DNA of 62,927 bases, filler included, from Reclinomonas americana ATCC 50394 (GCA_048213135.1; 8 parts of 3 records of this genome joined end to end with filler, not necessarily neighbours in it), one strand, 5' to 3'. Positions 35,677-36,753 are shown, numbered from the whole stretch's first letter. The notes: generated by a model from the letters alone, not told the origin. A program made the numbers and translations.

Positions 35677-36753
35677 ATGTCCCGCACCACTCCTATCTTT
35701 ATCAGCAAGTGCCTGCGTGGACACACAGAATATGTGTTGTTTGTCGCCGTGACTCCCGACGGGCAGCATATTATCAGTGGAGGCTCAGACAAGACTGTGC
35801 GAATGTGGTCATTGGCGAGTGGTGAGGAGGTGCAACGATTTGCGGGGCACACTAGATGGGTGTTTTCTGTCGCAGTGACTCCCGACAGTCGACATATCGT
35901 GAGTGGCAGTGTCAATGCAACAATTCGAGTGTGGTCACTGGCGAATGGAGAAGAAGTGAGACGAATGAAGGGACACAGAGACGACGTGCGATCCGTCGCC
36001 GTCACTCGCGATGGCCAGCACATCGTCAGCGGGAGCTGGGACAAAACGATATGCGTGTGGTCACTGGCGAGTGGTGAAGAAGTGAGGCGGTTGATGGGAC
36101 ACTCTAGTTTTGTGAACTCTGTTGTCGTCACTCCCAGTGGCCAGTTTGTGGTGAGTGGGAGTTTTGACAACACTGTGCGAGTGTGGTCACTGGCGACTGG
36201 CGAGGAGGTGCGACGGCTGGAGGGACACGTTGGATGGGTGTATTCTGTCGTGGTGACTCCCGATGGCCAGCACGTTGTGAGTGGAGGCAGAGATACAACA
36301 GTGCGGCTGTGGTCACTGGCGAGTGGAGAAGAGGTGAGGCGAATGGAGGGGCACGCTGGATGGGTGTACTCTGTCGCCGTCACTCCCGATGGGCAATACA
36401 TAGTGAGTGGCAGCCGCGACTGCACTGTGCGCATTTGGTCGCTGGCGGGTGGAGAAGAGGTGCGACGACTGGAGGGACACACAAAGGAGGTGAGGTCTGT
36501 CGCCGTCACTCCCGACGGGCAGCACATTATCAGCGGAAGTGATGAAGGGACGGTGCGCGTGTGGAGCACGCCGTGCGGCCTCGCTCGGCAGGAGCTCAAC
36601 TGTGCACGATCAGCCATGCAGGCCGTGCAGGAGATGCAAGAAGACGGCGATGATTCGCGATGCCTTCCTGAGATGGTGCTGCGGTGCTTCATTGTCGAGG
36701 AGGCAGAGGTGGTGGCCTACCGGTGCTTCACTGATCCCGAGATGCGGTTGTGA
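35677..36753 (+). CDS. WD40 array gene 1: seven 42-aa WD repeats plus conserved ~60-aa tail, intronless
   Basis: Seven GH-x3-V-x-SVAVTPDG..SG..D.TVR.WSLA.GEEVRR units, then STPCGLARQELNCAR..SRCLPEMVLRCFIVEEAEVVAYRCF. Confidence 0.95.
   Translation: MSRTTPIFISKCLRGHTEYVLFVAVTPDGQHIISGGSDKTVRMWSLASGEEVQRFAGHTRWVFSVAVTPDSRHIVSGSVNATIRVWSLANGEEVRRMKGHRDDVRSVAVTRDGQHIVSGSWDKTICVWSLASGEEVRRLMGHSSFVNSVVVTPSGQFVVSGSFDNTVRVWSLATGEEVRRLEGHVGWVYSVVVTPDGQHVVSGGRDTTVRLWSLASGEEVRRMEGHAGWVYSVAVTPDGQYIVSGSRDCTVRIWSLAGGEEVRRLEGHTKEVRSVAVTPDGQHIISGSDEGTVRVWSTPCGLARQELNCARSAMQAVQEMQEDGDDSRCLPEMVLRCFIVEEAEVVAYRCFTDPEMRL

Follow-up and report, generated by a model that had tools for sequence, protein, structure and literature searches.

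We report a tandem array of eight WD40 genes in Reclinomonas americana ATCC 50394 (GCA_048213135.1) whose products join a variable beta-propeller to a nearly constant C-terminal tail of about 60 residues. The genes lie head-to-tail on the plus strand at 35677-45800 of a 62,927-nucleotide stretch of DNA (hereafter the window; eight parts of three records of this genome, joined end to end with filler), and each ends in the same tail. The tail is apparently a small domain not described before, carried by a WD40 family that is lineage-specific and diversifying. Based on structural models and patterns of conservation we propose, with somewhat better than even confidence, that it is a new, independently folding two-helix hairpin that serves as a constant, putative protein-protein docking or oligomerization module on a variable propeller.

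The tail is shared by all array genes

In the first gene (g1), the tail occupies 36565-36753 of the plus strand, from S297 to the stop codon. It begins without a spacer after the last propeller strand (V-R-V-W-S/T-P), with an almost invariant S-T-P junction, and consists of helix 1 (residues ~299-320), an acidic linker (~321-328), and helix 2 (from ~326 or 329 to 352). A tblastn comparison of the 62-residue g1 tail with the window recovered eight full copies. The gap-free copies matched with E 4e-40 to 4e-24 and 72-100% identity, and all other matches, bar a relic described below, had E of at least 0.4. After g1, the copies are located, again on the plus strand, at 37872-38066 in g2 (E 1e-29), 39198-39380 in g3 (E 3e-28), 40511-40693 in g4 (E 4e-24; L-S replaces L-P at the start of helix 2), 41831-42013 in g5 (E 7e-29), 42998-43186 in g6 (E 1e-26), 44178-44463 in g7 (E 1e-20; two pieces around runs of N at 44242-44285 and 44298-44341), and 45618-45800 in g8 (E 1e-29).

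A preliminary description of this DNA had placed the tail in all eight genes and its second half in a relic; tblastn and the tail alignment bear this out, and the motif string given there agrees with the alignment. The accompanying claim that only the acidic linker changes length does not hold, as g1 and g2 are also three residues longer just ahead of the final R-L. The relic (35056-35151, plus strand) retains helix 2 and the C-terminus in frame, followed by a stop codon, and has no propeller upstream. Its tblastn match (35056-35148; E 6e-15, 84% identity) covers only tail residues 32-62, in keeping with the earlier claim, which needs one correction: three-frame translation also revealed remnants of the acidic linker and of the last part of helix 1 upstream in another frame, a shift consistent with a 1-base deletion. 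The relic is the truncated 5' edge of the array.

Across the 11 tails aligned here, seven residues are invariant (S297, E306, L330, L335, C337, F338, and E341), and helix 1 features the conserved small residues A310 and A313. A cysteine zinc site was ruled out, C337 being the only invariant cysteine in the 11 tails.

The tail, and helix 2 foremost, is the most strongly constrained part of these proteins. Nonsynonymous (dN) and synonymous (dS) divergence was estimated by the Nei-Gojobori method across the six gap-free genes, with all 15 pairs pooled. The propeller body gave a dN of 0.233, a dS of ~0.72-0.80, and a dN/dS of 0.29; the corresponding values for the whole tail were 0.110, 0.66-0.74, and ~0.15-0.17. 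Within the tail, helix 2 (residues 329-352) was the slowest to change, with a dN of 0.072, a dS of 0.77, and a dN/dS of ~0.09, followed by helix 1 (298-321; dN 0.114, dS 0.62, dN/dS ~0.18). The acidic linker (322-328; dN 0.28, dS 0.37, dN/dS ~0.8) is under relaxed constraint. None of 276 24-codon windows of the propeller body had a dN as low as that of helix 2, nor did any of the 234 windows left after hypervariable columns were removed. Because synonymous sites in the tail are as free to vary as those elsewhere, its sameness is held at the protein level rather than by gene conversion or an overlapping DNA signal. The array paralogues are old and not recent copies.

Change in the propeller is concentrated at few positions. 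Positions 14, 15, 16, 18, 34, and 36 of the 42-residue repeat are saturated with replacements (pooled dN ~1.0, entropy >1.5), and the remaining repeat framework has a dN of 0.147, compared with 0.110 for the tail. We take these six positions to lie in top-face loops and strand starts, on the usual ligand-binding side of WD40 propellers, and their pattern suggests diversifying ligand-binding faces. The earlier view that a variable propeller carries a constant C-terminal module thus gains support from the contrast in dN and, as described below, from tails attached to propellers that are only 22-29% identical.

Relatives of the propeller and of the tail

The g1 propeller (35677-36564) matches seven repeats of the Pfam WD40 family (PF00400; E 7e-83). 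AlphaFold2 predicted a closed, seven-bladed propeller of 28 strands for full-length g1, with a mean predicted local distance difference test (pLDDT) score of 91.9 and a predicted template modeling (pTM) score of 0.88; the first strand begins at residue 9, with the protein start about eight residues earlier. The model superimposes on 2ymu_A with a Z of 50.8 and a root-mean-square deviation (rmsd) of 1.0 over 289 residues, and the g1 propeller shares 39-41% identity with 2ymu and 5yzv (Z ~50). Repeats within a gene are 59-67% identical, or 67-77% without the six variable positions. The closest relatives of the propeller, at 52-64% identity, are bacterial, fungal, and metagenomic WD40 proteins, including those of Nostoc, Anaerolineae, Trichodesmium, Parafrankia, and Babeliales among bacteria and of basidiomycete fungi. 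All five that were examined stop just past the last blade, and the hairpin tail is absent from them. A PADLOC search returned no match for the tail and matched the propeller only to the WD-like stretch of one model.

The tail has few relatives of its own. Its profile was searched exhaustively with HMMER in 1.84 billion cluster representatives (E <=0.001), and four proteins were recovered, all of which carry it as a C-terminal tail directly after beta-propeller repeats. P0001 (E 2e-27, 116 residues) is an open reading frame (ORF) from EukProt, derived from a Reclinomonas americana expressed sequence tag (EST), and is the one relative that documents expression of the family. P0002 (E 3e-8, 147 residues) is a fragment. 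P0003 (E 3e-7, 394 residues) and P0004 (E 3e-5, 381 residues) have full-length propellers and are colinear with g1, the former at 29% and the latter at 22% identity. The first 15-17 residues of helix 2 in P0004 are nearly the same as those of g1, and P0003 likewise keeps the start of helix 2 nearly intact. The tail module therefore appears to predate the array and, so far, to reside always on a propeller. Besides the array, it is so far confined to the jakobid EST and three other assemblies.

Other searches added no further members. A word-index search of 5.8 billion proteins with the tail at near lengths had no match, and one with the tail alignment in longer proteins returned only three proteins, each already in the exhaustive search; the ESM Atlas gave no usable match to the tail. 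No sequencing run was listed for g1 and g2, nor any that held RNA. The sole match in a scan of metagenome contigs (locus L001, 3046-3228) was rejected as chance: it is a 60-codon ORF that overlaps longer ORFs on a bacterial-looking contig and shares only a V-L-R-C-F-like word. As the preliminary description had stated, no known domain can be assigned to the tail, for which Pfam-A offered only DUF1749 (g1 tail, E 0.29). Nothing fell below E 1.4 when its profile was compared with PDB sequences, where the best matches were GID8 (E 1.4) and alanine-tRNA ligase (E 2.2). Among the papers listed for jakobid WD40 proteins and the Reclinomonas nuclear genome, we found no prior description of the family.

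Predicted fold of the tail

In the full-length g1 model, the tail forms helices at residues 299-320 and 326-352, with successive blocks at pLDDT 84, 80, 63, 79, 81, and 66. Modeled alone, as a 67-residue construct with an 11-sequence alignment, it forms an antiparallel hairpin with helices at construct residues 8-29 and 39-61 (mean pLDDT 83.8, pTM 0.68). Its helix blocks reach pLDDT 90-94 alone, as against 79-84 in the full protein, where propeller blocks score 91-98. A hydrophobic residue occupies 14 of the 22 positions of helix 2 in at least 80% of the 11 tails, and these positions span ~300 degrees of the helical wheel (resultant 0.11). The same applies to 10 of 22 positions in helix 1, which span ~200 degrees.

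Structural comparisons of the tail model returned generic helical hairpins. Foldseek had no match in the PDB at E <=0.001, and its best matches (E 1.5-5) were to alpha-hairpins from AcrA/MexA, Rop, and flock house virus (FHV) B2, the last at rank 8. Among 48,161 chains compared by VIA-align, the highest Z was 7.6, and 449 chains scored at least 5, including F-BAR segments, Rop variants, designed hairpin oligomers, and phage Aqs1. Chains of similar size that matched over their whole length included the Rop variants 7kae_A (Z 6.9, 57 residues aligned) and 9cfs_B (Z 6.5), the designed homo-oligomeric hairpin 5j0j_A (Z 6.6), and phage Aqs1, 6v7u_A (Z 7.1). For a predicted structure, such matches point to a two-helix hairpin and carry nothing on function. 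In Foldseek and VIA-align comparisons of the full-length model with solved structures, none of the 50 matches listed aligns past residue 302, and no propeller with a comparable tail was seen among them.

Possible roles of the hairpin

A two-helix hairpin can bury only one stripe per helix. Because helix 2 is hydrophobic nearly all the way round and helix 1 about halfway, a lone hairpin cannot bury these surfaces, and much of their conserved hydrophobic surface has to find its cover elsewhere. Most likely, the hairpin would complete a helical bundle. It could pair with the hairpin of another family member in a Rop-like four-helix bundle, which would yield homo- or heterodimers of propellers; Rop, FHV B2, and Aqs1 are all dimers. 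Alternatively, it could dock on one common partner protein. Either way, all of the variant propellers would be joined to the same downstream machinery. We give self-pairing and a common partner roughly equal weight, and the slightly better than even confidence stated at the outset is for the two jointly, as judged from the models. Docking or pairing is favored because the isolated tail is modeled with higher confidence than the tail within the full protein, because close relatives of the propeller do without it, and because helix 2 is preserved even where the propeller has diverged to 22% identity. If the hairpin does have a partner, that partner would reveal a pathway that has been diversified in a poorly studied branch of eukaryotes, and the hairpin may represent a new small interaction domain.

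Several observations weigh against this proposal or speak for an intramolecular cap, in which the hairpin folds onto the bottom face or side of its own propeller and stabilizes or closes it with no partner. In all four outside relatives the tail stands at the same site, immediately behind the last blade, which also fits a structural role, and the tail follows the last strand without a spacer across the near-invariant S-T-P junction. The large hydrophobic surface of helix 2 needs to be buried somewhere, and the helices keep a pLDDT of ~80 in the full-length model; this model, judged by pLDDT, is still compatible with a hairpin that rests on the propeller. Both models were built on shallow alignments (10 and 11 sequences) composed mostly of paralogues, and the structural matches of the tail are weak and generic, with a best Foldseek E of 1.5 and a best Z (7.6) in a range common for helical models. 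No carrier of the hairpin other than a propeller was present among the four profile matches, a whole-genome search not being part of this analysis. Self-pairing, a common partner, and intramolecular packing all fit the results presented here. Nonetheless, we regard a cap as unlikely: pLDDT of the tail is higher alone (90-94) than in the full protein (79-84), the tail is missing from all five examined propeller relatives at 52-64% identity, and helix 2 is nearly unchanged on the P0003 and P0004 propellers, which at 22-29% identity is hard to square with a co-evolving surface. If the hairpin only caps the propeller, the finding shrinks to a lineage-specific WD40 expansion. A further reading, which we put forward as a tentative and less probable idea than the cap, is that the array is a protist repertoire for recognition of non-self or other targets, built on a bacterial-type WD40 sensor that lost or never had the body of a NOD-like receptor (NLR; NOD, nucleotide-binding oligomerization domain). 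The hairpin would then couple sensors, through a homotypic four-helix bundle, to other family members or to an effector with the same hairpin. If true, a jakobid-like eukaryote would possess an analogue of the NLRs of fungi and bacteria that lacks a NOD and is assembled in trans.

Two further readings would assign the tail to a known pathway. The preliminary description had loosely likened LPEMVLRCF to the first F-box helix and the layout of the tail to WSB-type SOCS-box proteins, with neither consensus fully matched, and had suggested a cullin-ligase recruitment or other effector motif, by which the array would amount to a set of substrate receptors. On the ligase reading, the hairpin would bind Skp1, Elongin B/C, or DDB1. 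A variable WD40 propeller with a short, constant helical module does recall F-box-WD40, WD40-SOCS-box, and DCAF receptors; L-P opens a hydrophobic helix in the tail; and the selection pattern of constant against variable parts suits any receptor bank. Since receptors that bind DDB1 do so through a helix or a helix-loop-helix, a new helical motif for adaptor binding is conceivable. The F-box, however, comprises ~40-50 residues and three short helices after L-P, whereas L-P is present in nine of the 11 tails (the proline is replaced in g4 and P0003) and is followed by only 22-35 residues, predicted to form one continuous helix in a pair of 22-27 residues each rather than a compact three-helix box. 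An S/T-x-P or L-P stands at the start of each helix, so the L-P of helix 2 may simply be a helix cap. Pfam-A hmmscan at E <=10 matched none of the 11 tails to F-box (PF00646/PF12937), F-box-like, SOCS_box (PF07525), LisH, or any other ligase-adaptor family, and the PDB profile search found no ligase component. Neither the BC-box ([STP]-L-x3-[CSA]-x3-[AILV]) nor the Cul5-box (L-P-x-P) occurs in any of the 11 tails, and F-box proteins are missing from the 50 tail-model matches listed by Foldseek or VIA-align, an absence that does not exclude likeness. The DWD motif, in the part of its source covered here, comprises 16 residues that end in W/Y-D/E-x-R/K (PMC5749748); this pattern had no match in the eight window proteins and four relatives. 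Across 39 repeat ends, all of the form W-S-x-A/T/V, position 14 is always S, and position 16 is always A, T, or V and never R or K. The supposed F-box, SOCS-box, and DDB1-type resemblances thus find no support. By the profiles, motifs, and models applied, the family would include no F-box, SOCS-box, or DWD protein, and we consider a cullin-ligase role, which is without positive support, quite improbable. Least probable of all, in our estimate, is that the C-terminus is a sorting or modification signal for an organelle or membrane, such as a type 1 peroxisomal targeting signal (PTS1) or a lipidated cysteine. The PTS1 consensus is S/A/C-K/R/H-L/M. Nine of 11 tails do end in R-L or R-F, and C337 is invariant. 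The last three residues, though, vary: window proteins end in D-R-L, M-R-L, or D-R-F, and the relatives have M-Y-L, T-R-F, D-L-R, or L-W-W, so that the end is not conserved and no end fits the consensus; no cysteine stands where a CaaX box requires one, and conservation peaks in helix 2 rather than at the extreme C-terminus. PTS1, endoplasmic reticulum retrieval, and CaaX readings of the C-terminus are accordingly rejected on sequence. One source of the idea is that the jakobid WD40 proteins Gcp1-3 have a predicted PTS1 and a proposed mitochondrion-peroxisome pathway, as stated in the portion of PMC8134430 covered here; against it, the 10 text supplements of that paper that were searched, which hold the Gcp sequences, contain none of four five-residue words taken from helix 2.

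Organization of the array and flanking sequence

The window is eukaryotic DNA of ~55-60% G+C with numerous N gaps. Each complete array gene is a single uninterrupted ORF of 357-361 codons. The complete genes, all on the plus strand, are g1 (35677-36753, 358 residues), g2 (36981-38066), g3 (38304-39380), g4 (39620-40693), g5 (40940-42013), and g8 (44724-45800). The propeller of g6 (42191-43186) is broken by an N gap at 42549-42783, and g7 is readable at 43893-44463, its 5' portion lying inside the N gap at 43414-43892; both are also on the plus strand.

The 3' flanks are common to pairs of units, namely the relic and g1 (35152-35300 and 36754-36900), g3 and g4, and g7 and g8, which indicates that the array expanded by duplication of units that included the 3' untranslated region. 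In the spacers (35340-35660 and others), long microsatellites of the types (CT)n, (GT)n, (CCT)n, and (TACG)n lie, together with assembly gaps, just 5' of the start codons, and a pyrimidine-rich tract ending in CAGC lies directly upstream of the array ATGs. Immediately 5' of the relic, a 315-codon ORF without a Pfam match (33795-34742, plus strand) may be part of a neighboring gene.

Genes that flank the array (14474-16024, 50891-51676, and 60774-61697) look split, in that Pfam matches begin mid-profile at ORF ends: 2OG-FeII_Oxy_2 at 93/194, Ins145_P3_rec at 92/213, and Arv1 at 32/202. Taken together, the uninterrupted array ORFs, the split appearance of the flanking genes, and the 52-64% identity of the propeller to bacterial, fungal, and metagenomic WD40 proteins hint that the founder gene of the array was horizontally acquired or retro-copied.

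Comparison with known systems

By sequence comparison, the array family belongs to none of the F-box-WD40, SOCS-box, NLR, and Gcp1-3 groups, the last as judged by word search in part of one source. Gcp1-3 are Pex7-like WD40 proteins of jakobids and a few other protist lineages, some with a predicted PTS1 (PMC8134430, in the portion covered). They resemble the array proteins as lineage-restricted jakobid WD40 proteins but differ in that the array propellers are of the repetitive bacterial and fungal type. Identity with Gcp1-3 was rejected on zero occurrences of the helix 2 words in the 10 supplements, by word search and not alignment.

The propellers themselves resemble the hypervariable yet internally conserved WD40 repeats that fungal NLRs carry (HET-E/D/R, NWD; PMC4986451), as well as bacterial ones (2ymu, 5yzv), and share with them a near-identical repeat framework. 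Propellers of this type serve immune-like sensors in fungi and bacteria. In the part of that paper covered here, replacements in Podospora WD40 repeats fall at four positions per repeat, and high internal conservation is defined at 85% identity. Replacements in the array genes are likewise focused on a few positions, six in number, whereas identity among repeats within a gene (59-67%) lies below the 85% level. The array proteins also differ from NLRs at the level of domains: g1 has no NACHT or NB-ARC and no N-terminal effector, and the best 25 of its 68 Pfam families are all WD40 or other propeller families. From the close propeller relatives of bacterial and fungal type, the array is set apart by its helical tail, which is lacking in five of five examined.

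In size and predicted shape, the tail is like Rop (ColE1 Rop/Rom) and also FHV B2 and Aqs1. Rop variants align from end to end (7kae_A, Z 6.9, rmsd 3.2, 57 residues; Foldseek template modeling score 0.62-0.65), but at 8-15% identity there is no sequence relation, and the scores are in the chance range for helical proteins. Rop-type hairpins are free-standing, whereas the array hairpin is appended to a propeller, and its dimerization is something that we infer from the predicted fold.

Finally, the overall plan of the array proteins recalls F-box-WD40 and WD40-SOCS-box receptors of the beta-TrCP/Fbw7 and WSB types. The array tails differ from these in having no box profile, BC-box, or LPxP and in their predicted two-helix hairpin. 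The likeness is in the combination of a target-recognizing propeller with a short, constant helical module, and in WSB-type proteins the adaptor module is likewise C-terminal. Joining one constant adaptor module to a variable repeat domain is how cells direct shared machinery to many targets, as in F-box proteins, SOCS-box proteins, and NLRs.

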